Below, piece by piece: positions 4,754-20,295 of a stretch of DNA of 64,000 nucleotides. The DNA is from an uncultured Bacillota bacterium (GTDB lineage: Bacteria > Sysuimicrobiota > Sysuimicrobiia > Sysuimicrobiales > Segetimicrobiaceae): positions 96,001 through 160,000 of the forward strand of contig CAWDRG010000015.1 in the NCBI GenBank assembly GCA_963804645.1, read 5' to 3'. Under the pieces are notes generated by a model, which was not told the origin of the DNA, searched no databases, and was given only the letters and a program-made list of their open reading frames with translations. Made by a program: the position numbers and the translations under genes. Position 1 is the first letter of the stretch. Each line of letters starts with the position of its first letter.

Positions 4754-4759
4754 GGGCGT

Positions 4760-5344
4760 TCAGCTCGCCGCGAGCCGCTCGAGCAGGACGGCGTACTCCT
4801 CGGGCGTGTTCACGTTCACGAACGAGGCCAGATCGGGGTCGAAACGCCGTATGTCGTCCTCCTCGACGATGCGGACGCGGACGGACGCGAGGAGTCCAGC
4901 GGTGCGGGCCCCGCGCGCGATGCACTGTTCGATCGCGGGCAGGCAGGCGGGCGTGTAGATCGCGTGCAGCGGCTCATACTCGCCGCGATGCCGCGGAATG
5001 ACGACGTCGACATCGCCGGCGAGCGCGGCCATGTGTCGGATCAGCGCCGCGCTTAGGAACGGCATGTCGCACGCGCAGACGAACGCCGGGCCGGAGACGT
5101 GCCGGAGTCCCGAGTAGACGCCGACGAGCGGGTGGCCGGATGGCAGCGCGTCGGGGATGCACCGGAGTCCGGTGCGCGCGTAGTCCTCGGCCGTGTTGGT
5201 CACGAGCAGCGGGGGCTGCCCGCATGCGTCCCCGACGCGCGCGGCCACGATCTCGACGAGCGTGCGGTCTCCGACCGGCAGTAGGGCCTTGTTCCGCCCC
5301 ATGCGACGGCTGTGACCGCCCGCCAGAATGACCCCTGCCAGCAT
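4760..5344 (-). CDS. mobA: molybdenum cofactor guanylyltransferase
   Basis: ILAGGHSRRMGRNKA, ACDMPF, EPLHAIY and FVNVNTPEE motifs. Confidence 0.9.
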   Translation of the reverse strand: MLAGVILAGGHSRRMGRNKALLPVGDRTLVEIVAARVGDACGQPPLLVTNTAEDYARTGLRCIPDALPSGHPLVGVYSGLRHVSGPAFVCACDMPFLSAALIRHMAALAGDVDVVIPRHRGEYEPLHAIYTPACLPAIEQCIARGARTAGLLASVRVRIVEEDDIRRFDPDLASFVNVNTPEEYAVLLERLAAS

Positions 5345-5440
5345 CACTGTGGCCCGAGTATACATCACCGGCCCGCTTGGGCCAGGATGACGCTGGCCGG
5401 TCGACGAATGTCCACGCGCGGGGGAGATTGGGGGGGCGCG

Positions 5441-5728
5441 ATGGACGAGGTCGAGGCGCGGAGGATGCTGAAGGCGTTCGGCACGCAGGTCACGCAGTTC
5501 ATGGACCGCCGCCGCGAGCTGAAGAATCTGGCCGCCGACGCGATCGAGGGGCAGGATCGGACGGCGGTCGCGGTCGTCCTCGCCCAGCTGGGGACCGAGA
5601 CCTCGGAGCTGCACCGCCACTGGCTTCGGGTGACGAACCTGGTGCTGCAAGAGGAGCGGGAGGCGTACAGTGAAATCGCCCGCCTGCTCGAGCAGGCCGG
5701 GCAGGCCGAGGCACAGCAGACCACGTAG
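5441..5728 (+). CDS. small helical hypothetical protein
   Basis: GC3-biased codons and an amphipathic helical 95-aa product. No family recognised. Confidence 0.7.
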   Translation: MDEVEARRMLKAFGTQVTQFMDRRRELKNLAADAIEGQDRTAVAVVLAQLGTETSELHRHWLRVTNLVLQEEREAYSEIARLLEQAGQAEAQQTT

Positions 5729-5823
5729 GAAGTGCGGCGCGCGCCGCCGCGAGAGGGGCGGCGCCGCGAGACCCAGAATCCCCCGGCACGCATCTCGTTG
5801 GGGATATGTGGAGGAGGCGCACT

Positions 5824-7467
5824 ATGAAGATCGAGGACGTGCTGGCTGAGCTGCACCGCGCCGACGTGCGCGTGTCCCGTCGGGACCTGATCCGCCTCGC
5901 CGCGCTCGGCGGCGCCGCCGCGGCCGGGTTGGGGGAGGCGCTCGGGGGTGCGCCCGCGGCCGAGGGCGCCACGGGAAAGCGGGGCGGCGTGTGGCGCATG
6001 GCGATCCCCGGCAACCCGACCGCGTACCCGATCACGATCCCGGGCAAGCTCGTGGATATTCTCGTCAACAAGACGATCTTCAGCACGCTCGTCCGCTACC
6101 AGCTCGTGAACGGCGGCATCCAGGTGGTCCCGGACCTCGCCCAGTCGTGGACGGCGAACGCCAGCCTGACCGAGTACACCTTCAAGCTTCGCAGCGGGGT
6201 GAAGTGGCACGATGGGCAGCCGCTGACCGCGGACGACGTGAAGTTTACCCTCGATGCCCTGCTCAACCCCAAGGTGAACGCGGGGCTGGCCGGCGTGGTC
6301 GCGGCGATCAAGGAGACCCAGGTCGTCGACCCCCTGACCGTCAGGTTCGTCACGCAGTACCCGTACGCGTCCCTGCCCGTGATGCTCGGGTACAACATCG
6401 CGATCGTGCCGAAGCATCTGCTGCAGAGTCAAGACCTGAACCAGCCGGTGGCGTTCATCCAGCATCCGGTGGGGACGGGCCCGTTCCGGTTCAAGTCGTT
6501 CACGCAGGACACCGCGATGGAGGTCGAGGCGAATCCGGACTACTGGGACGGCGCTCCGATGCTGGACGGGATCGTCTTCAAGGTGATCCCGGACGGGAAC
6601 GCGCGGCTGGCGCAGCTCAAGTCCGGTGATATCGACTTCACCGTGATCGATCCGCCGCAGCTGGCCGCGCTGCAGGGCGTGTCGGGGATCAGGGTCCGGC
6701 GCGCGCCGCAGGTCAACTACTATTTCTTCGCGATCAACCACGATCTGCCGAAGTTCGCGGACCTGAGGGTGCGGCAGGCGCTGACGTACGCGATCGACAA
6801 GCAGGCGATCGTCAAGAACATCCTCAAGGGCGACGGGCGGCCGGCGACGGGCCCGATCAACCCGCTCTTGGGCGCGTATTACAACCCGGACGTCGATACG
6901 TACCCGTACAACATGGACAAGGCGGCGGGCCTGCTCGCCGAGGCGGGATGGAAGAAGGGTCCCGACGGCATTCTCGTCAACGCGCAGGGGCAGAAGTTCA
7001 CGCTCTCGATGAACGGGCCGAAGGGCTACCCCGTGATGGAGCAGGTGCTGACGTACGCGCAGCAGCAGTACAAGACGCTCGGGTTCGACGCCACGCTCGA
7101 GATCGTGGATTGGCCGGTGCACCTCACCACGTACGTGAAGCGCCAGTATGAGCTGCTGATGGAGTGGTGGATCACGCCCCCCGATCCCGACGAGTACGAC
7201 CACTACTACAGCACATCGCCCGACAACTACTGGGGGTACAAGAACACCGCCCTCGACTCGCTCCTGATCAAGGCGCGGAGCGAGCCGGATCCGCAGAAGC
7301 GCGTCGCGCTGTACCATCAGATCCAGGACCTGATCGCGAAGGACATCCCGCTCGTCTACCTCTACTACCCGCCGGAGCTGCAGGCGATGAGCACGCGCAC
7401 GCAGGGGCTGCCGCTCATCGGCTACCGTGATGCGCTCACGTGGACGTCCAGGGTGTGGCTGAGCTAA
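5824..7467 (+). CDS. ABC transporter substrate-binding protein, family 5 (peptide/nickel), Tat-exported
   Basis: SRRDLI twin-arginine signal. PDLAQSW, YTFKLRSGVKWHDG.PLTADDV.FT, PVGTGPF and VRQAL.YAID motifs. Confidence 0.93.
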   Translation: MKIEDVLAELHRADVRVSRRDLIRLAALGGAAAAGLGEALGGAPAAEGATGKRGGVWRMAIPGNPTAYPITIPGKLVDILVNKTIFSTLVRYQLVNGGIQVVPDLAQSWTANASLTEYTFKLRSGVKWHDGQPLTADDVKFTLDALLNPKVNAGLAGVVAAIKETQVVDPLTVRFVTQYPYASLPVMLGYNIAIVPKHLLQSQDLNQPVAFIQHPVGTGPFRFKSFTQDTAMEVEANPDYWDGAPMLDGIVFKVIPDGNARLAQLKSGDIDFTVIDPPQLAALQGVSGIRVRRAPQVNYYFFAINHDLPKFADLRVRQALTYAIDKQAIVKNILKGDGRPATGPINPLLGAYYNPDVDTYPYNMDKAAGLLAEAGWKKGPDGILVNAQGQKFTLSMNGPKGYPVMEQVLTYAQQQYKTLGFDATLEIVDWPVHLTTYVKRQYELLMEWWITPPDPDEYDHYYSTSPDNYWGYKNTALDSLLIKARSEPDPQKRVALYHQIQDLIAKDIPLVYLYYPPELQAMSTRTQGLPLIGYRDALTWTSRVWLS

Positions 7468-7498
7468 GGTGACGGCGGTCTGACCCGCGGCCTCGACG

Positions 7499-7539
7499 GG
7501 GCCGGGCCGGCGGGCGCGCTCGCGCCGCCGGCCTGGCTC
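7499..7539 (+). terminator. GC-rich stem-loop between the binding-protein and permease genes
   Basis: gggccgggccggcgg pairs with ccgccggcctggctc (with G-U pairs). This is the usual position for an mRNA-stabilising or attenuating hairpin. Confidence 0.5.
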
Positions 7540-7560
7540 TGAGCCGCCACCGCGCGACCA

Positions 7561-8511
7561 GTGATGACCGGATACCTCCTGCGGCGGCTTCTCCAGGCGG
7601 TCGTGCTGCTCTGGATCGTGACCGTGATCACGTTCGTGCTGATCCACGAGGCACCCGGCGGCCCCGCGGTGCTCCAAAACCCCGACCTCGGCCGCGATCA
7701 GGTCGCGCGGTTTCGCGCGAACCTCGGCCTCGACGACCCGCTGCCGGCGCAGTACTGGCGATGGCTCCGCGGCGTGCTGCGGGGGGACTTCGGCCTGAGC
7801 TACAACACCGTCGAGCCGGTGCTGGGCCTCGTCGCCACCCGGCTGCCGAATACGCTGCTGCTGACCGGGGTTGCACTCGGCATCGCGTTCGCGGTGGCGA
7901 TTCCGCTGGGGGTGATCAGCGCCACGCACCGCAACTCCGCGGTGGACCGCGTGATCGCGGCGGTGGCCTTTCTCGGGATCTCCACCCCGGTGTTTTGGCT
8001 CGGGATCATGCTCATCGTGCTGTTCGCGGTCCAATGGCGCGTGCTGCCGGCCGGCGGCATGTATGAGGTGGGCGCGCCATTTTCGATCGCCGACCGCGTC
8101 CGCCACCTCCTGCTTCCGGTGTTCGTGCTCGTGATCGCGAACCTGGCCGAGGTCACCCGCTATACCCGGTCGGCGATGATCGGGGCCCTCGCCGAGGACT
8201 ACGTGCGCACCGCGCACGCCAAGGGCTTGTCCGGGCGGGTCGTGCTGTTCCGGCACGCCCTGCGGAACGCGCTCATCCCCGTGCTGACGATCATCGGCGT
8301 GTACCTCCCGCGTGCGGTCAGCGCCACCGCGATCACGGAAACCGTGTTTACCTGGCCCGGCATGGGGCTGCTCGCGGTCCAGTCCGCGGCGACACGCGAC
8401 TATCCCGTGGTGATGGGGGCGACGCTCGCCGTCGCGGTGTTTGCCGTGGCGAGCAGTTTGCTCACGGACCTCGCGTACGGGTACGTCGACCCCAGGATCC
8501 GGCTCGGGTAG
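7561..8511 (+). CDS. peptide ABC transporter permease (OppB/DppB-like)
   Basis: GLDDPL..QY, GDFG.S, RLPNT, EDYVRTAHAKG and DPRIR motifs. Confidence 0.93.
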   Translation: MMTGYLLRRLLQAVVLLWIVTVITFVLIHEAPGGPAVLQNPDLGRDQVARFRANLGLDDPLPAQYWRWLRGVLRGDFGLSYNTVEPVLGLVATRLPNTLLLTGVALGIAFAVAIPLGVISATHRNSAVDRVIAAVAFLGISTPVFWLGIMLIVLFAVQWRVLPAGGMYEVGAPFSIADRVRHLLLPVFVLVIANLAEVTRYTRSAMIGALAEDYVRTAHAKGLSGRVVLFRHALRNALIPVLTIIGVYLPRAVSATAITETVFTWPGMGLLAVQSAATRDYPVVMGATLAVAVFAVASSLLTDLAYGYVDPRIRLG

Positions 8512-8518
8512 CGTCGCG

Positions 8519-9418
8519 ATGGCGGCCGTCCAGTCCCTCGACCGGCGCGTCCAGAGCGACGCACCGCCACCGCAGCGGCGGCGGGCGGCGTGGCGCCGGT
8601 TCGTGGCGAACAGGCTCGCCGTCGCCTCGACCACGTTTCTGCTCGCGATGTATCTCGTGGCGGCGGCCGGACCGCTGATCAGTCCGTACCGTCCCGACGC
8701 CGTCGACATCATGAACACGAACGCGGCGCCGTCCGCGGCGCACTGGCTCGGGACCGACGAGAACGGCCGGGACGTCTTGTCGCGGCTGATCGCGGGCGCT
8801 CGGGCCTCGATGACGGTCGGCGTCATCGCGATGGTGATCGCGATCGTGATCGGCGCCCTCGTCGGCAGCCTCGCGGGGTATTACGGGCGGTGGGTCGACA
8901 GCGTGCTGATGCGATTTACGGACGGCATGATGGCAATCCCGTACTTCTTTCTGGTCCTGATCGTCGTCGCGGTGTTCGGGTCCGCCTTTCGCAACATCGT
9001 GATCGCGATCGGTGTCACGAGCTGGATGGTCGTCGCCCGGATCGTCCGCGGTGAGGTGCTGCGGTACCGCGGCCTGGACTTCGTGCTTGCCGCCCGCACG
9101 CTCGGCGCGACGTCGGGGCGGATTCTGGTCCGCCACATCGTGCCGCAGACCGTCCCGTCGATCATCGTGGCGGCCACCTTTGGGGTCGCGTCCGCGATCC
9201 TGCTCGAGTCTGCCCTGAGCTTCCTCGGGCTGGGCATCCAGCCGCCGCAGGCGAGCTGGGGCAACATGCTGTCGAACGCCCAGGCGTACGTCTGGGAGAA
9301 CCCGCGGCTGCCGATGTATCCCGGGGTGCTGATCCTGTGCACGGTGCTTGCCTACAACTTTCTTGGCGACGCCCTGCGGGACGCGCTGGACCCCAGGTAC
9401 CGGGAGAGCAACGTCTGA
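8519..9418 (+). CDS. peptide ABC transporter permease (OppC/DppC-like)
   Basis: HWLGTDENGRDVLSR, ESALSFLGLG.QPP..SWG and GDALRDALDP motifs. Confidence 0.93.
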   Translation: MAAVQSLDRRVQSDAPPPQRRRAAWRRFVANRLAVASTTFLLAMYLVAAAGPLISPYRPDAVDIMNTNAAPSAAHWLGTDENGRDVLSRLIAGARASMTVGVIAMVIAIVIGALVGSLAGYYGRWVDSVLMRFTDGMMAIPYFFLVLIVVAVFGSAFRNIVIAIGVTSWMVVARIVRGEVLRYRGLDFVLAARTLGATSGRILVRHIVPQTVPSIIVAATFGVASAILLESALSFLGLGIQPPQASWGNMLSNAQAYVWENPRLPMYPGVLILCTVLAYNFLGDALRDALDPRYRESNV

Positions 9419-9511
9419 CGACCGTCCGGGGAAGACGCCAGGGCGGACGATGCGGCGGTGTCGAAGACCTCAGGGGCGCGCATCGGCGCGGCGGAGCAAG
9501 GAGGTGAGTCC

Positions 9512-10570
9512 GTGACACAGGCTGGCGCGGGGACCGTGAGCTTGGTCGGAGACGTGATGATCGAGCGTCCGTTCGCGCAGAGCGGGCGCGGCCGCGAGGC
9601 CGGGTTTCGAGCGGCCCTGGCGGCTGCGCGCGAGGCGGACCTCGTCGTGGCGAACCTCGAAATGCCGCTGTCACGGCGCGGCGTCCGCGTCCCGAAGACG
9701 GCAAGCCTGCGGTCCGATCCGGACGTGATCCAGGACGTCCGGGCGATGGGGATCGACGCGGTGACGCTCGCGAACAACCACCTGTACGACTACGGGCCCG
9801 AGGCGCTCCATGACACGGTCGCCGCGTGCCGTGAAGCCGGCATCGCGTGCTGCGGCGCCGGCGCGGATCTGGACGCGGCGCTGGCGCCCGTGCGCCTCCG
9901 CGCCGGCGGGGCGGCGGTCTCGTTGCTCAGCGTGGCCTGCACGCTCCCGGTGGAGTCGGCGGCGAGATCCGGGAAGCCCGGGATCGCCCCGATCGGGGTC
10001 GGGCACTCGCTCGAAACCGACATCAATCTGTTCGTCGAGCAGCCGGGGACCGTGCCGGTCGTCCACACCTGGGCGTCGCCGGCGGACCAGCAGACCGTGT
10101 GCGACCGCATCGCCGCGCTGCGCGGCGAGGGGCAGGTCGTGATCGTCGGCATCCACTGGGGGGTTCCTGAGTACTGGCTGTCGCCGTCGCTCGGGCGGCT
10201 TGCGGAGTACCAGCGTCCGCTTGGGCATGCCCTGATCGACGCCGGGGCCGAGATCGTGTTCGGGCACCACTCGCACTCGCTCCATCCGATCGAGGTGTAC
10301 CGGGGCAAGCCGATCTTCTACAGCGCCGGGAACTTCCTGTTCGAGGACCCGCGGGCGTTCATGGGGCCCGAATCGATGATCGTGCAGGCTGCCATCGGCG
10401 CGCAGCTGGAGATCTCGATCGTGCCCGTGCTCGTGGACGCCGACGGGTTCCCGGAGGTGGCCGCGGGGCCCGCCGCCGCCCGGGTGCTGGGGCGGCTGGT
10501 AGAGCTGTCTCAATCGTTGGGGACGTCGCTCGAACTCGCGGGCGACCGGGCGCGCCTCATTCTGACGTAA
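9512..10570 (+). CDS. CapA/PGA_cap family metallophosphoesterase-fold protein (no signal peptide)
   Basis: GDVM, NLE, LANNH.YD.G, HWG, GHHSH and YSAGNF motifs. Likely start is GTG at 9512 after GGAGG; 9458 is the alternative. Confidence 0.88.
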   Translation: MTQAGAGTVSLVGDVMIERPFAQSGRGREAGFRAALAAAREADLVVANLEMPLSRRGVRVPKTASLRSDPDVIQDVRAMGIDAVTLANNHLYDYGPEALHDTVAACREAGIACCGAGADLDAALAPVRLRAGGAAVSLLSVACTLPVESAARSGKPGIAPIGVGHSLETDINLFVEQPGTVPVVHTWASPADQQTVCDRIAALRGEGQVVIVGIHWGVPEYWLSPSLGRLAEYQRPLGHALIDAGAEIVFGHHSHSLHPIEVYRGKPIFYSAGNFLFEDPRAFMGPESMIVQAAIGAQLEISIVPVLVDADGFPEVAAGPAAARVLGRLVELSQSLGTSLELAGDRARLILT

Positions 10571-10614
10571 GTCGATCGGAGCACAGTTCGGCAGTCGAGA
10601 AAGGGGAGACTCGG

Positions 10615-12384
10615 ATGAGTCGTGTGGACGAGATTACCGGGTGGAGCGACGGAGCCCTCGAGCGTCGTGTCCTCGACGCGGTGTCGATCAAGGTCCCGTG
10701 GCGCTTGGTCGAGCAGTTCTCCAAGCTCGTGCGCCTCTCGGGATCGCCGGAGGAACGGCGGGCGTTTGAGCTGCTGACGAAGCAGCTGACCGCATGGGGA
10801 GTGCCGCACCGTCTCCACGAGCCGCTGTGCTTCATCTCGATTCCGGGGCCCTCCGGGGTGCGCTGCAACGGCACCGTGTACCGGGCGAAGACGCCGGCGA
10901 TGTCGGTGTCCACGAACGGGGCGGAGGTCTCGGGCGAGCTCGTGTATGTGACGAGCGGCAGCGGACGCAGCGCGTTCGACGTGCTGTCCACCGGGGTGGA
11001 TCTCGCCGGGACGCGGGTGGCCGGCAAGATCGTCGTGACCGAGGGGATGGCGGCGCCCGCCAAGGTGAAGGACCTGATGGAGGCGGGGGCGATCGCCGGG
11101 ATCTTCATCAACCCGGGCCAGAACATTCACGAGGGCATCTGCACGACGATCTGGGGCACGCCCGACCTCGATGCCGCGGTCCGGCAGCCGACAATCCCCG
11201 TCGTCGCGGTCAACCACCCCGACGGGCAGGCGCTCATTCGTGCCGCGGAACGGGGCGGTCGGGCGTCGGTGTCGACGCAGCTCGACACGGGCTGGCGCAC
11301 GATCCCGGTGCTCGTCGCGGAGATCCCCGGCCGCCAGGCGCCCGAGGAATTCGCGCTGCTGCACGGCCACGTCGACGGATGGCACTTCGGCGTCGGCGAC
11401 AACGCGACCGGCAACGCGACGCTGCTGGAGCTCGCCCGAGTGTTTTGGCGCCACCGGCGGAGGCTTGCGCGCTCGCTGCGCATCGCGTGGTGGTCCGGGC
11501 ACTCCCACGGCCGGTACGCGGGGTCGACCTGGTACGCCGACACGCACGGGATCGATCTCGCGAGACACTGCGTTGCCCAGGTGAACTGCGATTCACCGGG
11601 CTGCCGCTGGGCCACGACCTACAACCATCTGACGGCGATGAGCGAGACGGTACCGCTCGTCGAGGCCGTGATCCGCGGGACGACCGGCATCACCCCTGAG
11701 CCCGAGCGGCCGCCGCGCGCGGGCGACTATTCGTTCAACGGCATCGGGCTGTCCTCGTACTTCATGCTGAGCTCCACGATGTCCGAGGAAGACCGCGCGG
11801 CGCGCCACTACTACGCGGTCGGCGGGTGCGGCGGCAACATCGCGTGGCACACCGAGGACGATCTGATGGACATCGCCGACCGGGACAACCTGCTGCGGGA
11901 CATGCGCGTCTACGCGGCGGCGGTGCTGCGGACGCTGAACGCCCCGGTCCATCCGCTTGACTGGACGCGGACCGCCGCGGAGTTCCGCTCGACGCTCGAT
12001 GGGTACCGGCAGGCCGCGGAGCCTGAGTTCGACTTCGCCCCTGCGTTGACCGCGCTCGATGAGCTGGACGGGACCCTCGCCGAGTTTTACGCCAAGGCGC
12101 CCGCCCGCGGGAGCGCCCGGACTGCGGCGGTGAAGCGCTTCAACGCGGTCCAGCGGCGTCTCGGACGACTCCTGATCCCGGTGAACTACAGCCGGATGCC
12201 GGCGTTCTGGCACGATCCCGCGGTGAACGTGGCGCCGCTCCCGGATCTCGCGCCCGCGTCGGCGCTGCCTCGGGCCGCGGGGCGCGCCGACCAGCTCGGG
12301 ATGCTCCGAGCGCATCTGACGCGCGGACAGAATCGCCTGGTCTGGACCCTGCAGCAGGCCCGAGAGGCGGCGGGCGGGTCGTGA
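10615..12384 (+). CDS. M28 family peptidase with PA-like insert, 'GHSHGRY' variant
   Basis: HGHVD, DNATG, WWSGHSHGRYAGSTW, NCDSPG and WHTEDD motifs. Confidence 0.85.
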   Translation: MSRVDEITGWSDGALERRVLDAVSIKVPWRLVEQFSKLVRLSGSPEERRAFELLTKQLTAWGVPHRLHEPLCFISIPGPSGVRCNGTVYRAKTPAMSVSTNGAEVSGELVYVTSGSGRSAFDVLSTGVDLAGTRVAGKIVVTEGMAAPAKVKDLMEAGAIAGIFINPGQNIHEGICTTIWGTPDLDAAVRQPTIPVVAVNHPDGQALIRAAERGGRASVSTQLDTGWRTIPVLVAEIPGRQAPEEFALLHGHVDGWHFGVGDNATGNATLLELARVFWRHRRRLARSLRIAWWSGHSHGRYAGSTWYADTHGIDLARHCVAQVNCDSPGCRWATTYNHLTAMSETVPLVEAVIRGTTGITPEPERPPRAGDYSFNGIGLSSYFMLSSTMSEEDRAARHYYAVGGCGGNIAWHTEDDLMDIADRDNLLRDMRVYAAAVLRTLNAPVHPLDWTRTAAEFRSTLDGYRQAAEPEFDFAPALTALDELDGTLAEFYAKAPARGSARTAAVKRFNAVQRRLGRLLIPVNYSRMPAFWHDPAVNVAPLPDLAPASALPRAAGRADQLGMLRAHLTRGQNRLVWTLQQAREAAGGS

Positions 12385-12684
12385 GGGTGTTCGACGGGGC
12401 CGGGAGATGCCAGGGGCGCGCCGGCCGCGACCACGGATGGAGCGTGCTCTCGGGGAGATCGCGGACGGCGTGCGTGTAGCACACGACTTCGGGATGCGCG
12501 AGTACGTTGCGCGGTAGTCCAACGATCGGACCTGGGATCTCCGCGGCCGGGCGCATGCGTCGATGCCGGTGCAGCCTCATCTCTGGTGGTCGATGAACCT
12601 CGGCGTCCGGGTGGAGAACGATCAAGCCAGACGGTGCTTCATGCACCTCGATTCCATCGTCTTGTCCACGGAGGCGTAACGCCG

Positions 12685-13023
12685 ATGCCGCTCACCTCAT
12701 ACACGGCTGTGGTCGAACGCGCGACCCCGCTCGCCGGGACGTTTGCGACGGAGCCGTATGAAGTCGCGTGGGCGCGTGAGGTCCTGGTGTTCATTCGAGT
12801 CCGGGAAGACACGCAGGGGCGTCCGGCGGTGCAGGCTCGGATCCAGATCTCGCCGGACGGGATGCACTGGGTCGATGAGGGAACCGCGTTCGCGCCGATC
12901 GAGGGCCCCGGCGTCGCCTTCGTCCGCGTCACCCAGTTCGGCAACTGGCTGCGCGTGGCCGGGCAGGTCAGCCCGGACGGCGCGGCGGCGAAGGCCCTGA
13001 TCTACTTCTGCTTGAAGGAGTAG
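12685..13023 (+). CDS. small beta-rich hypothetical protein (possibly DUF6385-like)
   Basis: GGAGG RBS and motifs TEPYE.AWA and QISPDG.HW. The family name is recalled from memory only. Confidence 0.7.
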   Translation: MPLTSYTAVVERATPLAGTFATEPYEVAWAREVLVFIRVREDTQGRPAVQARIQISPDGMHWVDEGTAFAPIEGPGVAFVRVTQFGNWLRVAGQVSPDGAAAKALIYFCLKE

Positions 13024-13123
13024 GGCGTCACGCGCTCGAGTCGCGCGCGCACTCGCGTGATGGCGTTACATGGCCCTGACCGGGCGCCGCGTTGCAGAGA
13101 GGATCTCTCGGCTCGCATCGCGC

Positions 13124-14116
13124 TCAACGCTGCGGATTAATCTGGCGCAGCGCGGGGAGCACGTCCGTCCCGAGGATGTCGAGGGTGGCCTCCTGGTCGA
13201 CCGATGTGACCTGGACCGTGACGATGTCCGCCCCGACCTCGACCAACGGTCGGTACACCTCCACCAACTCCGCGGGCGTGCGGGCCCACGCGTACTTAGC
13301 GATGATCTCGCGGCGGTCCATCGAGTCGGCCCGCTGCCGGAGGACGGCCGGGTCCACCTCGTCGAGCCGGCCCTCGACGCGGAGGCCCCGCCACGCGGCG
13401 AGCGCCTGCCAGGCTTCCTCCTCGGTGCGGGCGAGGATCGACCACCGCTGGGCGACGACCGTCGGCGTCGGCCGGCCCGCCTCGCGCGCGGCCTGCCGGA
13501 AGGGATCGATGACCTGCTGGTGCGCGTCGACCGGGTCCTTGACGCTGACGATGAGCCCGTCCGCGAGCCGGCCGGCCATCGCGGCGGACTGCTTGCCGCC
13601 GGCCGACATCCAGATCGGGACGTAGCCGCGCGGAGGGCTGTAGAGCTTGGCGGCGCGCGTCCGATAGTGCTCCCCGGTGAAATCGAGCTTCTTCCCGTCG
13701 AGGAGGCCGCGCATGATCGCGATCGCTTCCGCCATGCGGGCGGACCGTTCCTTGTACCCTGGGAAGTCCCAGCCGAGGGGGCGTTCGTTGATGCCTTCCC
13801 CGCTGCCGATGCCGAGCGCGAACCGGCCGCCGGACAGCCGGTCGACCGTGGCCGCCGCCTGGGCGACCAATCCCGGATGGTAGCGGAAGAGGGGGCAGGT
13901 CACGGCGGTGGCGAGGCGCACGTGCCGGGTGCGGACGGCCGCCGCGCCGAGCCAGGTCCACGCGGCGCCCGCCGCCGACGCGTCATCGACCCACGGGTGG
14001 AAATGGTCGGAGACGGTGAGGGCGTCAAACCCGACGTCCTCGGCGCGCACCGCGTGCTCGAGCAGGACCTCGGGCTGGAACTGCTCGGTGCCGCAGAAGT
14101 AGGCGAATGCTGGCAT
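13124..14116 (-). CDS. F420-dependent LLM-class oxidoreductase (G6PDH/TIGR03557-like)
   Basis: EQFQP, SDHFHPW, TAVTCP..RY.P..VAQA.AT and GIGSGE.INE motifs. GAGGAGG RBS. Confidence 0.88.
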   Translation of the reverse strand: MPAFAYFCGTEQFQPEVLLEHAVRAEDVGFDALTVSDHFHPWVDDASAAGAAWTWLGAAAVRTRHVRLATAVTCPLFRYHPGLVAQAAATVDRLSGGRFALGIGSGEGINERPLGWDFPGYKERSARMAEAIAIMRGLLDGKKLDFTGEHYRTRAAKLYSPPRGYVPIWMSAGGKQSAAMAGRLADGLIVSVKDPVDAHQQVIDPFRQAAREAGRPTPTVVAQRWSILARTEEEAWQALAAWRGLRVEGRLDEVDPAVLRQRADSMDRREIIAKYAWARTPAELVEVYRPLVEVGADIVTVQVTSVDQEATLDILGTDVLPALRQINPQR

Positions 14117-14164
14117 CGTATCCTCCTCACGTGCTGGCATCGTGTTCGTCTGGTCTGACGAGGG

Positions 14165-15898
14165 TCACGGGGCGAGTGCGTCAAGCGTCGCGTCGATTTC
14201 GCGCGTCGCATCCCGCAGCGCGGCAGCCACCCGGTTGGACTCGCGGAGCACCTGCGCCCGCAGAAACCCGTAGGCAGGCTGCCCGTCGAGTTGCGGCAGT
14301 CCGGCGGCCTTGCCGAGCGCCGCAAGGGTGGACGACGTGGTGGCCCGCATGATGGGCGACCACTCCGCGGGATCGTGCTGGAACCGTCCGCCCTGACTGT
14401 AGATCACCGACGTGACGATCCGGCTGATCCGGATCAAGGCCGCGTTCAGCCGCTTCCGGGCCCGCTCGCTCCGCGCCGTTTCTCTGGCGTCTTCCAGGCG
14501 CGCCGCCGCGGCGCCAAACGCGTCTGCCTCCGCGCGGAGCTGCGAGAGATCGAGGTGCCGGCCGGCGCCCTCCTGGATTGCCGCGAGCGCGCGGCGGATG
14601 TCGGCGGCCGTGTCGACGTGGTGCAGCGGCAGGACGGCGGCGTTCGCGAGGTCGATCATCGCCGTGAGCGAGACGCGGGTGTCCAGCGCCAAAATCTCGA
14701 CGTCGGCCTTGTCGAGCGTGTCAAACTCGGTGTGCCACCACCACGCGTTGGCCGCCCCGCCGGTCCACGGGCGGAAATCGGGGTGGCCGTCCGGGAGAAA
14801 CGGATAGGTCGAGAACGCCGGGACGCCGTTCGCCAGGAATGACTGATCGGCCGCGCGGGAGGGCCGGTGAACCGGCGCGTCCGCCTGTCCGGTGACGCGC
14901 GCGATCGTCGCGCGGCAGAACCGCTCGATCTCCGCGGTGGTGTGGCGCGCCACGTAGCGGGTGGCGCCGCGAACGCCGGGGGAATCGACGTTGTGGTAGG
15001 CGAGGCAGTGCTCGGCGAGATCCTGGAAGAACCGGTCCGCGTACCACGTGGAGCCGGCGTATCGGCCGTGCGAGTGCCCCGGCCACCAGCACACGCGCAC
15101 GCTGCGCCGGAGGTCTTGCCGCCGCTCCCAGAGGATCCGCGCCATCTCCATCAGACACGCGTCGCCCGTCGCGTTGTCGGTGATCCCGGCGTGCCATGAG
15201 CAGTAGTGCGCGCCCACCATGACGAACAGCTCGGGCTCGTCCGTGCCGGGAATCCGCACTTCCGGCAGCCGCGACGGCGTCCACCCGGTCTGGACCTCGG
15301 CCGTGACCTTGACCCGCACGCGGTCGCCGCGGCCGAGCAGGCGCTTGAGCGCGTCCCCACTCTCTTTGTTCACCGAGACCGCCGGGACGTTCGGCAGCCG
15401 GTCGAGCTGATCGAGCCCGGGGGTCCCCCAAATCGTGGTGCCGATCATGTTGTGGATGACGCGGTCCTGGTTGGCAAAGATCACCGCGGCGCATCCCGCC
15501 CGCGTCGCGCGCAGGATCGTGACCGGCGTCGCCAGTCCGTCGATCAGCACGGCCTGCCCCGCCGCGCGCGTCACCTCGGCGTCCGGCAGGTACACGAGAT
15601 CGGCGACCACCCCGTCGAGGCCTGTGTCCCGCCCGAACGAGTGGGTGGCGCACCGCAGGGACGTCGGCTCGGGTTCGAGGACGTCGAGCGTGGCGCGGAT
15701 CGGGTAGCTCAGGTAGGCCGGGAACTCGTGCACGGTGACCGGCACGCCCGCGTCACGCATCCGGTCCGCGATGTACGCCGCGGCCTTGGCCTCTCCCGGC
15801 CCCCCCGTGTCGCGGCGCACTTCCGCGAACCACTCGAGGTCTGCACGCAGCCGCGCGGTGCTCACCGCGCGCGCCGCCGCCTCCGCCTCCGCGCTCAC
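14165..15898 (-). CDS. second M28 family peptidase, 'GHSHGRY' variant (paralog of 10615..12384)
   Basis: GAHYC, DNATG, WWPGHSHGRYAGSTWYAD, NVDSPG and WWHTEFD motifs, plus TTIWGTP shared with the paralog. GTG start after GGAGG. Confidence 0.85.
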   Translation of the reverse strand: MSAEAEAAARAVSTARLRADLEWFAEVRRDTGGPGEAKAAAYIADRMRDAGVPVTVHEFPAYLSYPIRATLDVLEPEPTSLRCATHSFGRDTGLDGVVADLVYLPDAEVTRAAGQAVLIDGLATPVTILRATRAGCAAVIFANQDRVIHNMIGTTIWGTPGLDQLDRLPNVPAVSVNKESGDALKRLLGRGDRVRVKVTAEVQTGWTPSRLPEVRIPGTDEPELFVMVGAHYCSWHAGITDNATGDACLMEMARILWERRQDLRRSVRVCWWPGHSHGRYAGSTWYADRFFQDLAEHCLAYHNVDSPGVRGATRYVARHTTAEIERFCRATIARVTGQADAPVHRPSRAADQSFLANGVPAFSTYPFLPDGHPDFRPWTGGAANAWWWHTEFDTLDKADVEILALDTRVSLTAMIDLANAAVLPLHHVDTAADIRRALAAIQEGAGRHLDLSQLRAEADAFGAAAARLEDARETARSERARKRLNAALIRISRIVTSVIYSQGGRFQHDPAEWSPIMRATTSSTLAALGKAAGLPQLDGQPAYGFLRAQVLRESNRVAAALRDATREIDATLDALAP

Positions 15899-15944
15899 CT
15901 GACACCTCCGTTGGTCGACACGGCTCGCCTCACCCGGATCCGCG

Positions 15945-17060
15945 TCAGCCTCGCGCCCGGAACTCCGCGGTCCGCAGCGTGTACTTCTCGACGAGCCGGT
16001 CCACGACCGCGACGCCGAGCCCCGGGCCGGTGGGGACGTCCACCGTGCCGTCGGCATTCACCTCGAACCACGGCTCGATCAGATCCTCATGGAAGTAGCG
16101 CCGGCTCGCGCCGAGGTCGGCCGGCAGCGTGAAGTTCGGCAGCGAGGAGAGCGCGACGTTCGCCGCGCGGCCGATCCCCGTTTCGAGAAAGCCGCCGCAC
16201 CACACGGGGACGGCGCGCTCCTGGCATACGTCGTGGCAGCGAAGCGCCTCGGCGAGCCCGCCCATCCGTGCGGCCTTGATGTTGATGATCCGGCAGGCGC
16301 CGAGATCGTGCGCCTTGCGGGCGTCCTCGGCCGAGCAGATGGACTCGTCGAGGCAGATCGGCGTCTCGAGCTGGCGCTGCAGCGTCGCGTGGTCGATGAT
16401 ATCGTCGTGGTCGAGCGGCTGTTCGATCATCATCAAGTCGTAGGTATCGAGCGCCCGCAGCCGTTCGACGTCCGCCAGTGTGTACGCGGTGTTCGCATCC
16501 ACCTGCAGGCCGATCATGCCAAACCGGCCGCGGATGGCATCGACGACTTCCAGGTCGAACCCCGGCTTGATCTTGATCTTGATGCGCTGGTAGCCCTGCG
16601 CCAGCCACGTCTCGATCCGCGCGAGGACCCGGTCGATCGTCGGCTCGATGCCGACGCTCATGCCGACAGCCACCGACGTCCGGGTGCCGCCGAGGGCGTG
16701 GGCGAGCGATACGCCCTGCGCCTCGGCCCACGCGGCCCACGCCGCCGACTCCACGCCCGCCTTCGCGAGGTAGTTCCGGCGCACCGGATGCAGCCACTCG
16801 GAGACCTCGCGCGGGTGCGCGAACGTGCGGCCGAGCACGCGCGGGATCACGAACTCGGTGAGGATCGGCCACGCGGTGTCGACGGTTTCCTCTTTATAGT
16901 ACGGTTTGGCGGTCACCGGCGACTCGCCCCACCCCGTGACGCCGTCGGCCCATAGCCGGACGAGGAGGCAGTCTTTGTTCTCATCGCGGTCGACCGACGT
17001 CTCGAACGGAAACACATACGGCATCCGGATCTGGCGGAGTTCGACGCGCTCGATGTTCAC
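15945..17060 (-). CDS. N-succinyl/N-acylamino acid racemase / o-succinylbenzoate synthase (NSAR/OSBS, enolase superfamily)
   Basis: PFETS, GWGE, RIKIKIKP (KxK), DANTAY, IEQP, LDES, INIK and WCGG.LETGIG motifs. No other men genes nearby, so menC is not assigned. Confidence 0.88.
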   Translation of the reverse strand: MNIERVELRQIRMPYVFPFETSVDRDENKDCLLVRLWADGVTGWGESPVTAKPYYKEETVDTAWPILTEFVIPRVLGRTFAHPREVSEWLHPVRRNYLAKAGVESAAWAAWAEAQGVSLAHALGGTRTSVAVGMSVGIEPTIDRVLARIETWLAQGYQRIKIKIKPGFDLEVVDAIRGRFGMIGLQVDANTAYTLADVERLRALDTYDLMMIEQPLDHDDIIDHATLQRQLETPICLDESICSAEDARKAHDLGACRIINIKAARMGGLAEALRCHDVCQERAVPVWCGGFLETGIGRAANVALSSLPNFTLPADLGASRRYFHEDLIEPWFEVNADGTVDVPTGPGLGVAVVDRLVEKYTLRTAEFRARG

Positions 17061-17071
17061 GGTCGTGCCTC

Positions 17072-17950
17072 CTACTGAACGAGTAGGTACACCACGCGGG
17101 GGCCGCGCCCGTCCGGAAACCGGACCGCCTCGGTCACGGTATACCCGCGTGTCAGGTAGTGCCGAAACGCCGCCCGGGTTGCGTCGCGCCACCGCAGCGC
17201 GACGTCCGGCCGCGCGGCTTTGAGCCCGGTGAGGTCGCGCGGAATCTCCACGAGCAGCGCCCGCGCCGCCAGGCTCACGTCCGGCGGGCGGGGGGACGCC
17301 AGGCCGGCGTCGTGGTCGTCCGCCTCTTCGGCGGCGACCGCCCAGGGCAGACCGGAGGGCAGCCGGGGCGCGCCCTCGCCTGCGAGGCGGGCGAGGACCC
17401 GGGACGACCGCAGCTGCCAGTCGATCTCGAACCGGTCGCTCGGCAGTCCGTGGTTGATCGCGTCGTTCATGATGCCGTAGTAGTCCACGTGGTACCGCCG
17501 GGCGATCCCGCCGAGGCGGGTGAAGTTGAACCGCGCATTCCCGGCCTGCAGCGGGTCGTACGTCCACACGATCTCATCCAGACCTGCCGCGAGTGCGGCG
17601 TCCCGCTGGGCGCGCTTCAGGCGGAGCCCCAGGCCCATCCCCTGCGACGCCGGCACCACGCCGGCCATATGCGAGTACCACAAGGCGCGGCCTCCACGCC
17701 AGGCCGGAAACGCGTAGGCGAATCCAACGAGCCCGCCGTCCGGACCGAACGCGCCGAGGACGAGGCCGCCGGCCGAGACCGCGGCCACCAACTGCGTGAG
17801 CGGCACGATATCAACCGGCGGAAACCGCCAGATCTCGGCCTGGAGCGTCTCGCACAGGCGAAGCGTCTCGGCATCCCGGATCGGGCGGATGGCGTACGCG
17901 TCCGCGGGGTGCGTCGGGACGCCGCGGGCCGCGCCGCCGCGGTCAGCCAA
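17072..17950 (-). CDS. GNAT acyltransferase of the type that accompanies NSAR (putative D-amino acid N-succinyltransferase)
   Basis: YSHMAGV, G.G..LK.AQR, WTYDPL...NA.FN..RLG and YYG...D.....LPSDRF...W motifs. Directly upstream of NSAR. Confidence 0.82.
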   Translation of the reverse strand: MADRGGAARGVPTHPADAYAIRPIRDAETLRLCETLQAEIWRFPPVDIVPLTQLVAAVSAGGLVLGAFGPDGGLVGFAYAFPAWRGGRALWYSHMAGVVPASQGMGLGLRLKRAQRDAALAAGLDEIVWTYDPLQAGNARFNFTRLGGIARRYHVDYYGIMNDAINHGLPSDRFEIDWQLRSSRVLARLAGEGAPRLPSGLPWAVAAEEADDHDAGLASPRPPDVSLAARALLVEIPRDLTGLKAARPDVALRWRDATRAAFRHYLTRGYTVTEAVRFPDGRGPRVVYLLVQ

Positions 17951-18998
17951 CGAGCGTGTGCGCCTCCTCGACGAAGGCCCCCACCAGCCGGATCGCGCCC
18001 TCCACGTCGCTCATCTGCAGCAGACTGAGCGGGGTGTGGATGTAGCGGCACGGGACCGAGACGCCGCCCGCGAGCACGCCGCCCCGGCTCAGATGGATCG
18101 CACCGGCGTCCGTGCCCCCGTATCCTCCCGGTGTCTTGTACTGATAGGGGATGCCGTGCGCGTCGGCGATCCGCTCCAGGGCGCGCGCCATCTGGGGCCG
18201 GACGATCGTCGAGCGGTCCGCCAGCGACACCGCCGGACCGTTCCCGAGCCGGGTGATCTGTCGTGCGCCGGTGACGCCCGGCACGTCCGCCGCGATCGTG
18301 CCCTCCAGCGCCAGCGCGATCACGGGGTCGATCTGATACGCGGCCGTGTGCGCGCCGCGCAGGCCGACTTCTTCGCACACCGCGAAGTTGCACGTCACCG
18401 TGAGCTCGGGCGTCCGATCCGCGAGGGCGCCGAGCACCTGCAGCATGATGGCGCAGCCCACGCGGTCGTCGAGCGCTTTGCCGAGCACGCAGCCGTTCGG
18501 GAGCGCTTGAAACGGATACGCGAGCGTCGCCGGGTCGCCGATGCGGATGCCGCGCTGCGCCACGTCGTCGGCCGACCCCGCGCCGACGTCGATAAACAGC
18601 GCCTCCACGGGGATCGGTTTGGCGCGCTCCTCGGCGCTGAGAATGTGCGGGGGCAGGGTCCCGATCACCCCGCGCGCCAGGGCGCCGTCGCGCGTACGGA
18701 TTGTCACCCCCTGCGCCGGCAGCACGCGCGCGTCCCATCCGCCGATCGTCGCGAACCGGAGAAACCCCGAGTCCTCGATGTGGTTGATGATGAAGCCGAT
18801 CTCGTCCATGTGGGCGTCGATCATCAGCGTGCGGGGGGACCGTCCGCGCCGCGTGGCGATCAGGTTGCCGAGGACGTCGGTCCGGACCTCGTCGGCGTGC
18901 GCGGCGGCGAGCGGCTGGATCACGTCCCGCACGTCGTCTTCGAAGCCAGAAACCCCGAAGGTGTTGGACAGTGTTTCCAGTAGCGCGAGCGTCTCCAT
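17943..18998 (-). CDS. M42 family aminopeptidase
   Basis: AHMDEIG, GKALDDRVG, EEVGLRGA, GGTDAG and RYIHTP motifs. Confidence 0.92.
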   Translation of the reverse strand: METLALLETLSNTFGVSGFEDDVRDVIQPLAAAHADEVRTDVLGNLIATRRGRSPRTLMIDAHMDEIGFIINHIEDSGFLRFATIGGWDARVLPAQGVTIRTRDGALARGVIGTLPPHILSAEERAKPIPVEALFIDVGAGSADDVAQRGIRIGDPATLAYPFQALPNGCVLGKALDDRVGCAIMLQVLGALADRTPELTVTCNFAVCEEVGLRGAHTAAYQIDPVIALALEGTIAADVPGVTGARQITRLGNGPAVSLADRSTIVRPQMARALERIADAHGIPYQYKTPGGYGGTDAGAIHLSRGGVLAGGVSVPCRYIHTPLSLLQMSDVEGAIRLVGAFVEEAHTLVG

Positions 18999-19304
18999 GG
19001 CTTCCTCCGGCGTGATGAACAGGTAGTGGTTCCTTTCGTCCGGCCGCGGCTACCTCCTGTGCCGTGGGAGTGCGGGGACCGCGCGGCCGGCCGGTCGGCG
19101 GCACCTCATCCGTTGGAACGGGCCGCCGGACGTATTCGGACATATGTGCGGCAGAGAGGTTTGATCGGGAGGCGCCGGCATGTATTATCTAAACTTAGGG
19201 AGGGTTCGATGTCGTGTGACCTCCCAAGATCCGGTCTGCTCATCACTCCACGCTTCAGGTGCGCTAGCGAATGTAACGAAAGCTCACTCAGGGAGGACCC
19301 CGCG

Positions 19305-20282
19305 ATGAAGCGCTTGTGCCTCGTTGGCGTTGCGTTGACGGTGCTCGGATTTGCGGTTCCGGCGATGGCCGCTCCGATCAGCTACCAGTTCCAAACCATC
19401 ATCAACCCAAACGATAGCACGTTCACGCAGCTGCTCGGGATCAACGACGCCAGCACGATCGCCGGATATTTCGGGAGCGGCGCCGCGGGCCATCCCAATC
19501 AAGGGTTCACGTTGACCCTGCCCAGCAGTTTCACGCCCGAGAACTTCCCCGGTTCGGCCCAGACGCAGGTCGTCGGCATCAATAACCTCGGGAACACGGC
19601 GGGCTTTTACATCACGGGGGGCATGACCCCGACCACGAACGGGTTCCTCGATACCGGCGGAGTGTTTTCAACGGTCGATGCCCCTGCCACGGTATTCAAT
19701 CAGCTTCTCGGCCTGAACAATAACGGAGAGGCGGCGGGGTACTCATCCGCCATCGATCCGGCCGGGATGAACGGCCAGGAGGCGTACACGGAACAGGGCG
19801 GAACCTTTACGTACCTGACCAGCTTGCTCCCGTCGGGCACCCAGAACAATCAGGCCACGGGGGTAAACGATTCCGGAGAGGTGTCGGGATTCTACGTCGA
19901 CAGCCTCGGGGTGACTCACGGCTTTCTACTGAACGGCAGCACGCTGACGACGATCGACCCAACCGGGTCGATGTTCACGCAGGCGCTCGGCGTGAATAAC
20001 TTGGGACAGGTCTCCGGCGTGTACATCGACTCCGGAATGGTGCAACACGGGTTCCTGGACATCAACGGCACCTTCCAGACGATCGACGATCCGGCCGGCT
20101 TCGGCACGACCACCGTGAACGGGCTCAACAACCAAGACCAGCTGGTCGGGTTCTACGTCGATGGCAACGATAACACCGACGGCTTCGTGGCCTCCCCGAC
20201 GCCAGAGCCGGGCTCGCTCCTGCTCCTGAGCACCGGCCTCGCCGGGTTCGGGGCGTACCGGCGCCGCCGCCAGCGCGGATAA
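19305..20282 (+). CDS. PEP-CTERM-anchored surface protein with HAF-like/propeller repeats
   Basis: N-terminal Sec signal, repeated 'GIN(N/D).G...G.Y....(H)GF' units, and a C-terminal TPEPGSLLLLSTGLAGFGAYRRRR sorting signal. Confidence 0.9.
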   Translation: MKRLCLVGVALTVLGFAVPAMAAPISYQFQTIINPNDSTFTQLLGINDASTIAGYFGSGAAGHPNQGFTLTLPSSFTPENFPGSAQTQVVGINNLGNTAGFYITGGMTPTTNGFLDTGGVFSTVDAPATVFNQLLGLNNNGEAAGYSSAIDPAGMNGQEAYTEQGGTFTYLTSLLPSGTQNNQATGVNDSGEVSGFYVDSLGVTHGFLLNGSTLTTIDPTGSMFTQALGVNNLGQVSGVYIDSGMVQHGFLDINGTFQTIDDPAGFGTTTVNGLNNQDQLVGFYVDGNDNTDGFVASPTPEPGSLLLLSTGLAGFGAYRRRRQRG

Positions 20283-20295
20283 CGCTCGTTCCGCG

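Follow-up and report, generated by a model that had tools for sequence, protein, structure and literature searches.

The ykfABCD operon of Bacillus subtilis is a dipeptide epimerase/peptidase operon which includes the L-Ala-D/L-Glu epimerase YkfB. A published pathway for the conversion of D- to L-amino acids combines, in the portions of bioRxiv 10.1101/2022.03.03.481873 available to us, a succinyltransferase of the GNAT family with a racemase of the NSAR/OSBS subfamily (for N-succinylamino acid racemase and o-succinylbenzoate synthase) and an M20 L-desuccinylase. The available parts of PMC10406935 describe MslH as an epimerase which depends on Ca and acts on the C-terminal residue of the precursor of a lasso peptide, with the catalytic dyads His88/Asp91 and His295/Asp11 and the metal ligands E44, N87, H259, and H261. 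According to the accessible text of PMC8179263, what CapA/PgsA does biochemically in the synthesis of poly-gamma-glutamate is still unsettled, these being membrane-bound, unstable proteins, and in its Discussion the authors of the MslH work propose CapA as a peptide epimerase acting on Glu units. Here, we describe a locus carrying relatives of these proteins in a 64,000-nucleotide (nt) stretch of DNA (the window, G000:C15:96001-160000) from the genome of an uncultured bacterium (G000; 5.3 Mb, 96.8% complete). It consists of a plus-strand operon for peptide uptake, with a CapA-like protein and a peptidase-like protein of family M28 (M28a), and of a minus-strand operon with GNAT, NSAR, and a second M28 protein (M28b). 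We hold it narrowly probable that these are two separately evolved cytoplasmic salvage modules which lie tail to tail in one genus, namely, a known D-to-L route and a peptide-uptake/epimerase/M28a operon.

Genes in the window were named by Pfam and NCBIfam profile scores against curated cut-offs. The GC content of the window is 70%, and third-position GC (GC3) values of 0.89 to 0.94 single out one open reading frame (ORF) per position. The genes of the two operons are as follows.

5806-7467, plus strand: SBP_bac_5, the family-5 solute-binding protein (SBP) of a peptide ATP-binding cassette (ABC) importer (PF00496, 334 bits)
7561-8511, plus strand: OppB-type permease (PF00528, PF19300; Opp/Nik-type models all below their equivalog cut-offs)
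8519-9418, plus strand: OppC-type permease, ORF from 8441 with likely ATG at 8519 (PF00528, PF12911; Opp4C 342 bits, cut-off 350)
9512-10570, plus strand: CapA-like PGA_cap protein, ORF from 9458 with likely GTG at 9512 after AGGAGG (PF09587, 205 bits)
10615-12384, plus strand: M28a, a cytoplasmic protein with PA and M28 domains, GHSxGRY type (PF04389, PF02225; motif AWWSGHSHGRYAGSTWYAD)
17943-18998, minus strand: M42 aminopeptidase of the TET/FrvX type, first gene of its operon (PF05343, 320 bits; PDB 4wwv, 1vhe, 1y0r)
17072-17950, minus strand: GNAT-family acyltransferase, candidate D-amino acid N-succinyltransferase, adjoining NSAR (PF00583 on homologues)
15945-17060, minus strand: N-succinylamino acid racemase, NSAR/OSBS subfamily (TIGR01928, 336.4 bits, cut-off 200.65)
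14165-15898, minus strand: M28b, with PA and M28 domains, GHSxGRY type (PF04389; three-domain fold like that of glutamate carboxypeptidase II [GCPII])
13124-14140, minus strand: F420-dependent luciferase-like (LLM) oxidoreductase, last gene of its operon (TIGR03557, 231.8 bits, cut-off 210.4)

In the plus operon, 93 nt separate SBP from OppB, 7 nt OppB from OppC, and 44 nt CapA from M28a. In the minus operon, M42 and GNAT overlap by 8 nt, and gaps of 11, 46, and 24 nt follow between GNAT and NSAR, NSAR and M28b, and M28b and LLM. Shine-Dalgarno-like GGAGG motifs are found at the gene junctions, including one inside the GNAT/NSAR gap, and from the 8-nt overlap M42 is predicted to be translationally coupled to GNAT. 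Junction reading, GC3, and the Pfam/NCBIfam matches thus bear out the layout proposed in a first-pass annotation of this DNA, i.e., ten genes in two convergent operons with short or overlapping junctions. Scanning 4500-22500 for promoters and terminators gave one promoter-like and four terminator-like sites, which in this 70% GC DNA is not above shuffled sequence. Short contigs from four peat-metagenome runs, possibly the window's own source sample, bridge 12519-14119 and 14090-14524 and contribute little except continuity. No RNA data set was listed as covering 9400-19100.

The minus operon is, judging from protein similarity, built on the known irreversible route of D-to-L amino-acid conversion. 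Besides its TIGR01928 score, the NSAR protein matches the N-acylamino acid racemase of Deinococcus radiodurans (1r0m) with 344 bits, and also 2zc8 and 1sja. When aligned to 1r0m, it shows the segments KIKIKPG, VDAN, IEQP, LDES, and NIKAARMGG, which correspond to the catalytic lysines (KxK and K263) and the three metal-binding acids, and the equivalent of the second-shell residue R266 is also present. The role of R266 in the NSAR/OSBS subfamily is treated in the part of bioRxiv 10.1101/2022.03.03.481873 available to us, in which members of the subfamily are also reported to be often bifunctional. Since the model TIGR01928 carries the name o-succinylbenzoate synthase, the gene might be read as a menaquinone gene in an operon unrelated to D-amino acids, which we deem scarcely credible. 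In the source genome, at 96.8% completeness, MenD (79 bits, cut-off 244) and MenB (135 bits, cut-off 343) stay below their cut-offs and MqnA has no match, so that, following the logic of the NSAR/OSBS literature, OSBS activity would be unneeded and the biological role would be that of an NSAR; moreover, the gene directly follows GNAT.

The GNAT protein itself scores 17.6 bits on PF00583, under the cut-off of 20.7, with weak PDB matches to GNAT enzymes over residues 69-131; PF00583 matches at E ≤ 0.1 in 16 of 20 aligned homologues, the best at 2.4e-7. The gene is single-copy in the source genome, and its family is very widespread: an estimated 3900 or so stretches in the GTDB collection of species carry it. 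Of the best 80 GTDB loci, 38 have an NSAR homologue no more than 10 kb from GNAT, mostly directly downstream. The next neighbor clusters after NSAR (35 loci) are an ABC ATPase, an aminotransferase, and an RpiR-type regulator (11, 9, and 8 of the 80 loci), while a class-C beta-lactamase-fold protein, a Bacillaceae-type M20, and M16 occur at 6 loci each. Neighbor cluster 2 (14 loci) was left unannotated; its representative is an opposite-strand ORF over the GNAT gene. The phylum of the source genome is small, with 94 genomes in the collection; tallies per genome include the unpublished genome G025, which no other claim uses. For GNAT, the 20 best loci by E-value outside the source genome were mapped, out of 67 other genomes with a match, and locus counts for both the GNAT and the CapA-like sets were taken from maps drawn with all ORFs. 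NSAR adjoins GNAT in 19 of the 20. The D-to-L core which the first-pass annotation saw in GNAT and NSAR therefore stands, on the strength of this adjacency and of the missing MenD, MenB, and MqnA.

M42 lies directly upstream of GNAT in 8 of the 20 phylum loci, all from family f1, in which eight of nine GNAT loci show this order; the remaining one, L137, is a short contig which is also without NSAR. Outside the phylum, M42 adjoins GNAT-NSAR in two Bacillota loci (L071 and L074). The operon gained M42 at the family level; M28b and the F420 oxidoreductase came in within a single genus. Only in G000 and G070 does the LLM gene follow NSAR in the operon, and a second copy, 98.4% identical and limited to the gene itself (13140-14160 in the window versus C17:52316-53336), is present in the source genome, the result of gene conversion or of a recent duplication. 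TIGR03557 proteins are relatives of F420-dependent glucose-6-phosphate dehydrogenase, and use of F420 is plausible in the source organism as it encodes CofD (293.5 bits, above cut-off) and CofE (26363-27220 of the window). LLM looks like a recent passenger in the minus operon, and the F420 step which had been proposed as a part of the system is not upheld.

The plus operon is an autonomous, conserved, and uncharacterized uptake module. The N-terminus of its binding protein, read directly from the sequence, is twin-arginine-like (...VSRRDLIRLAALGGAAAA..., containing SRRDLIRLAALGGAAAA; SRRDLI...AAAA), and its nearest solved relative is the oligopeptide-binding protein AppA of B. subtilis (1xoc, E 7.5e-69). 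No ABC ATPase genes were found in the locus, so that the importer set consists of SBP, OppB, and OppC without the two ATPases, which are probably shared from elsewhere. Importer operons lacking their own ATPases would be normal in the source genome, given 19 oligo_HPY ATPase domains above cut-off versus 74 OppB-like genes. CapA-like genes occur in 28 of the 94 phylum genomes (E ≤ 1e-40), and 34 of the 35 matches outside the source genome were mapped, leaving out that of G025. At 21 of the 34 loci, from eight genera and four families, an M28 gene of the GHSxGRY type (hereafter, GHS type) lies within 5 kb, 0 to 3506 nt away, and at one more it lies at 8.2 kb; a peptide ABC component is within 5 kb at 27 of the 34. 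Two orders recur, SBP-OppB-OppC-CapA-M28 and SBP-OppB-OppC-CapA-ApbA-x-M28. The mapped DNA of the other 12 CapA loci contains no GHS-type M28; in three of them the CapA-like gene is no more than about 100 nt from the end of a contig.

Neighborhoods of GHS-type M28 genes were followed in the phylum of the source genome and in 201 genomes from one other phylum, that of a Caldilineales metagenome-assembled genome. In the latter, M28a is matched at E ≤ 1e-40 in 7 of the 201, and six loci from four genomes were mapped, among them L201 with the full SBP-OppB-OppC-CapA-M28 order and 66% identity to M28a. Five genomes from other phyla with a GNAT gene gave no M28a match at E ≤ 1e-20, an empty answer which shows little. 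Taken together, the adjacencies GNAT-NSAR, M42-GNAT, and CapA-M28 exceed chance.

The CapA-like protein was called a hydrolase in the first-pass annotation, an assumption rather than an observation. It belongs to PF09587 (205 bits, cut-off 27), its N-terminus shows by eye no signal peptide, membrane helix, or hydrophobic stretch, and its only relatives in the PDB are the MslH entries (8GQ9 and others, E 9e-22). The equivalents of MslH D11, E44, N87, H88, D91, H259, and H295 are present, in the motifs GD, NNHxxD, and GHHSH. Candidate peptide epimerase is thus the better-backed label by sequence. The theme of D-residues proposed for the plus operon is plausible on this basis, the peptide epimerase MslH being the only characterized relative of the CapA-like protein. 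For assays of peptide epimerase activity, soluble homologues encoded in a simple uptake operon would be far more tractable than the membrane-bound CapA/PgsA proteins.

M28a and M28b share 36% identity over about 570 residues (E 4e-90), and both carry GHSHGRY in place of the Glu-Glu pair, in agreement with the proposal that each operon holds a paralogue of one odd M28. A recent tandem duplication as their origin was rejected in view of the 36% identity and of their separate sets of orthologues. Neither N-terminus shows a signal sequence, judged by eye. In alignments, His-Ser (H275-S276 in M28b) falls on the Glu-Glu pair of a Bacillus aminopeptidase (2ek8) and of NAALADase-L (4twe), which we take to be the position of E424/E425 in GCPII. 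PDB titles among the fold matches name the inactive GCPII mutants E424A and E424M, which supports equating the two. G274, H275, S276, H277, and Y280 are invariant in all 34 aligned family members, and the same is true of H231, D241, D305, and H389, the other four ligand positions; 25 of 25 further homologues carry the motif GHS[H/T/Q]GRY. The co-catalytic metal site with an adjacent Glu-Glu pair is thus not found in GHS-type proteins, and the family is set apart from canonical M28 peptidases. The source genome has seven GHS-type paralogues and three canonical ones of the GEE type, two of the latter in tandem with a GHS-type gene.

The AlphaFold2 model of M28b (pLDDT 91.9, pTM 0.92) finds its best Foldseek matches in human GCPII, GCPIII, NAALADase-L, and the transferrin receptor (TMq 0.71 to 0.82, identity 14 to 16%). 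The matches to GCPII, GCPIII, and NAALADase-L lie at TMq 0.77 to 0.82, and a three-domain architecture is common to all. According to the model, the GHS-type proteins form a GCPII-fold family in which the site is altered and metal binding is probably kept. The M28 family is matched by 1609 database proteins at E ≤ 0.001, and the 120 matches listed are all at E ≤ 1e-214. An ESM Atlas look-up of M28b gave only the generic clusters 'M28 family' and 'Carboxypeptidase Q' and was not used as evidence. The titles and abstract openings listed by one literature search for bacterial GCPII-like M28 homologues contain nothing on the GHS-type family, which we do not thereby claim to be unpublished.

Three kinds of epimerase-type genes neighbor GHS-type M28 genes: CapA/MslH type (the 21 loci mentioned above), NSAR (genus g1, to which the source genome belongs), and a YkfB-like dipeptide epimerase. 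The last is an enolase-superfamily gene (1jpm, E 9e-57) in the order M28-enolase-OppB-OppC-SBP, found in four genomes of genus g8 (L159, L160, L162, and L163) and one of family f7 (L158). Since MslH acts at the C-terminal residue of a peptide and a GCPII-type enzyme cleaves that residue off, a sequence of epimerization followed by cleavage would be mechanistically coherent. One could thus extend the argument to GHSxGRY M28 proteins as a distinct GCPII-fold family of dedicated partners to three unrelated kinds of alpha-carbon epimerase, forming with them a cytoplasmic epimerize-then-cleave route from imported D-residue peptides or N-acyl-D-amino acids to L-amino acids. In this general form we judge the proposal unlikely; the pairing events are few (perhaps three to five) and come from related genomes. 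If it held, the soluble CapA homologues would be the first catabolic peptide epimerases of the MslH type.

Enolase genes near the M28b orthologues of genus g2 were considered as further epimerases and rejected: the one scanned, that of L154, three genes from M28, resembles an acid-sugar dehydratase, with 253 bits on the L-talarate/galactarate model (cut-off 500). At L159, a PRK10481-family gene precedes the M28-epimerase-OppB-OppC-SBP operon. The source genome further contains, at G000:C17:676000-734000 (L112 to L114), a peptide and amino-acid catabolism island with M28-M20-M20, an enolase gene of the MLE subgroup, three DAO-family oxidases, ornithine cyclodeaminase, a gene set SBP-CapA-SBP-GGT-amidohydrolase (GGT, gamma-glutamyltranspeptidase), and two tandem pairs, each of a GHS-type and a canonical GEE-type M28.

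The fold of M28b and the family of the CapA-like protein also allow a narrower substrate for the plus operon, i.e., gamma-glutamyl oligomers such as fragments of poly-gamma-D/L-glutamate, in which the CapA-like protein would epimerize D-Glu and from which M28a would remove C-terminal Glu, in the manner of GCPII with folyl-poly-gamma-glutamate. CapA belongs to the family of poly-gamma-glutamate synthesis and has been proposed as a Glu epimerase (PMC8179263, in the text available), GCPII in complex with folyl-gamma-glutamate (4mcp) is among the top fold matches, and other CapA-like genes adjoin GGT genes in G000, G061, and G070. However, the GGT-containing loci L170, L184, and L196 are without GHS-type M28, and AppA, to which the binding protein is closest among solved structures, binds alpha-oligopeptides, so that we consider this substrate distinctly improbable.

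Which enzyme would release the L-amino acid is a separate question, and here a gene outside the minus operon has to be introduced.

20329-22176, plus strand: M20 metallopeptidase, likely start near 20800, divergent from the minus operon (PF01546 and PF07687)

This gene is separated from M42 by an inserted gene for a PEP-CTERM protein. It scores 323 bits on PRK06446 (cut-off 369) and, among solved structures, is closest to 2pok and to the Sulfolobus carboxypeptidase Sso-CP2 (4mmo), which reportedly also cleaves N-blocked amino acids. Its orthologue is found beside the GNAT-NSAR pair in 11 of the 20 phylum loci, usually divergent, while M28b lies directly 3' of NSAR in 3 of the 20 and in the window (G000, G066, G067, and G069). 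M28b orthologues with 64 to 67% identity are present in each of the six genomes from genus g2, in none of which GNAT was found, and G068 carries M42-NSAR-M28b without GNAT, which argues against a dedicated role of M28b in this route. The idea that an M28 takes the place of M20 is therefore not supported in general, with G066 (see below) as a possible exception. The G068 locus (L149, on C50) has the order M20 <-> M42-NSAR-M28b, i.e., an NSAR lacking its acyltransferase, and a GNAT match was found nowhere in this genome (97% complete, 8% contamination). The window also holds an AstE/AspA-family gene (succinylglutamate desuccinylase/aspartoacylase; 59429-60469, plus strand) and a further M20 gene (45490-46980, plus strand). 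At 25 to 40 kb from the operon, both are conceivable candidates for other N-acyl amino acid deacylases.

The tail-to-tail arrangement of the two operons is found only in genus g1 (G000, G065, G066, G067, G068, and G070; loci L129 to L133 and L149), in which the CapA-like gene is within the plus operon in G000, G067, and G069 (L131 and L167). In the sister genus g4 (L134), M28a stands alone without importer genes. At the level of genomes the two modules are independent, since GNAT is present in 22 of the 28 phylum genomes with a CapA-like gene and in 46 of the 66 without, and the pairing is only one genus-level event. The first-pass annotation had regarded both operons as a single D-peptide salvage system, in which M42, CapA, and M28 trim imported peptides with D-residues or isopeptide bonds, GNAT and NSAR convert the released D-amino acids, an M28 may replace M20, and an F420 step is added. 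Such a system would fit with the order kept in six g1 genomes, with M28b directly after NSAR in four genomes, with G066 being without an M20 orthologue, and, by the fold, with a GCPII-like enzyme acting beside a C-terminal carboxylate, as would suit N-succinyl amino acids. Its parts, however, come apart elsewhere: in G005, G008, G030, and G093 the plus operon is on another contig than GNAT-NSAR, and in the other phylum, too, it is found apart from that pair; and the M20 of the window and of 11 of the 20 loci, the g2 orthologues of M28b, the G068 locus, and the restriction of LLM to two operons point in the same direction. We thus find one system in two operons rather improbable. The recurrence in other genomes which had been expected of it holds for GNAT-NSAR and for CapA-M28 and fails for the joint locus, which is confined to g1. 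The M20 gene at 20329-22176, a small DUF6385 ORF, and the lack of ABC ATPase genes in the locus had been outside that account.

A more deflationary explanation is that only GNAT-NSAR, perhaps with M20, is D-specific, and that the rest are ordinary genes for uptake and trimming of L-peptides nearby by accident. The source genome is a peptide specialist: phmmer searches with the window proteins found 106 SBP5, 74 OppB-like, 58 OppC-like, and 13 M20-like proteins, 10 M28 relatives, and 6 CapA-like proteins. M28b, LLM, and CapA vary among genomes of a single genus, and besides NSAR the 80 GTDB loci hold no common neighbor of GNAT. On the other hand, CapA-M28 adjacency at 21 of 34 loci is far above chance for 2 to 10 M28 copies per 2- to 5-Mb genome, and GHS-type M28 lies beside a dipeptide-epimerase-like gene at five loci from two families. 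Accidental vicinity would likewise not account for M42 being coupled to GNAT, upstream of it in 8 of 9 f1 loci and beside GNAT-NSAR in the two Bacillota loci. We give this explanation little credence without dismissing it.

Under the interpretation we favor, two separate modules, the minus module would operate as follows. M42 would yield free amino acids out of peptides, GNAT would N-succinylate the D-amino acid, NSAR would racemize the N-succinyl amino acid, and a metallo-deacylase, most likely the neighboring M20 and possibly M42 or M28b, would free the L-amino acid; M28b and the F420 oxidoreductase would be late, genus-level additions. The plus module would import an oligopeptide by means of its Tat-exported binding protein, the two permeases, and ATPases from elsewhere. 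The CapA/MslH-family enzyme would then epimerize the residue at the C-terminus of the imported peptide, and the GCPII-like M28a would remove it. Gene identities, conservation counts, fold, and residue substitutions are findings of the analysis; we infer all substrates and the order of the reactions.

Several points weigh against the two-module interpretation. The metal ligand H261 of MslH aligns with Gly in the CapA-like protein, which scores 102.5 bits on the MslH equivalog NF038314, for a cut-off of 700. GHS-type M28 proteins, being without the canonical Glu-Glu pair, may not be peptidases at all. M20 is the likeliest N-succinyl-L-amino acid deacylase from its position alone, and BLASTP of the window M20 against that of a Bacillaceae operon (L061:2624-3793) gave no significant alignment, so that it belongs to a subfamily other than the M20 of the Bacillaceae M20-GNAT-NSAR operons. 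G066 (96% complete) has M42-GNAT-NSAR-M28b and no M20 orthologue, the best match being 41% identical; displacement of M20 by M28b or M42 is possible there. The related genomes are kin, so that the locus counts are higher than the number of independent events, and in a source genome crowded with SBP, Opp, M20, and M28 genes an adjoining gene of these kinds is cheap evidence.

Further genes surround the two operons. Between them lies a small DUF6385 ORF (12586-13023, plus strand; 30 bits, cut-off 26.8; GC3 0.77; with the likely ATG further in), which has no match in the ORF-homology maps of related loci. The gene between M42 and M20 (19026-20282, plus strand, likely start near 19305) encodes a PEP-CTERM protein with a signal peptide and the C-terminal PEPGS...RRRRQRG, in DNA of lower local GC (0.615). 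It has five relatives elsewhere in the source genome, which also carries an exosortase gene (C15:478769-479521, 253 bits); PEP-CTERM/exosortase is unexpected in a lineage labelled Bacillota. In G070, a gene for an MscS-like channel occupies the slot of the PEP-CTERM gene. Downstream, an M16 pair (YfmF/YfmH-like) is followed by CofE (F420-0:gamma-glutamyl ligase) at 23537-27220 on the plus strand, and the M16 pair is still beside the M42 operon in G066.

When compared with the published GNAT-NSAR-M20 pathway, the minus operon has in common the adjacent and co-oriented GNAT and NSAR genes, an adjoining gene for a metallo-deacylase of clan MH, and the catalytic residues of NSAR; GNAT homologues in Bacillaceae M20-GNAT-NSAR loci (e.g., L059 and L061) are 36% identical to that of the window. 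It differs in the subfamily and divergent orientation of M20, in the coupling of M42 upstream of GNAT, in the appended GHS-type M28 and F420 oxidoreductase, and in the absence of an OSBS-dependent menaquinone pathway. On its own, the GNAT-NSAR core adds little; a known pathway is now seen in an uncultured phylum too, with a putative deacylase partner which varies among M20, M42, and M28.

In the available text on MslH (8GQ9; PMC10406935), the substrate of the Ca(II)-dependent epimerization is the lasso-peptide precursor MslA, at its C-terminal Trp. The CapA-like protein shares with MslH the PGA_cap family, both His/Asp dyads, and three of the four metal ligands, and differs in the low NF038314 score, in the Gly at the position of H261, and in having no lasso-peptide genes nearby. 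Unlike CapA/PgsA, it is soluble rather than membrane-anchored, and it is encoded in an uptake operon rather than in a biosynthetic cluster.

M28b, in turn, resembles human GCPII, GCPIII, NAALADase-L (M28B), and the transferrin receptor in its protease-like, PA/apical, and C-terminal helical domains and, relative to the GCPII group, keeps four metal-ligand positions (H231, D241, D305, and H389). It differs from this group in being cytoplasmic and bacterial, in having His-Ser for Glu-Glu, and in its identity of 14 to 16%. With respect to ykfABCD, the relatives in genera g8 and g31 are alike in combining a GHS-type M28 with a YkfB-like gene, OppB, OppC, and SBP, a pairing which parallels that of NSAR and M28b in the window. 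They differ in that the partner is a GHS-type M28, not an LD-carboxypeptidase or NlpC/P60, and this arrangement is absent from the window. The more useful result is the M28 family, which is large, has the GCPII fold without the Glu-Glu pair, and is repeatedly found beside soluble proteins of the CapA/MslH family. Overall, the description which fits the locus best is that of a known operon for D-to-L conversion, to which peptidases were added in particular lineages, beside an autonomous, uncharacterized uptake module with CapA/MslH-type and GCPII-like proteins.

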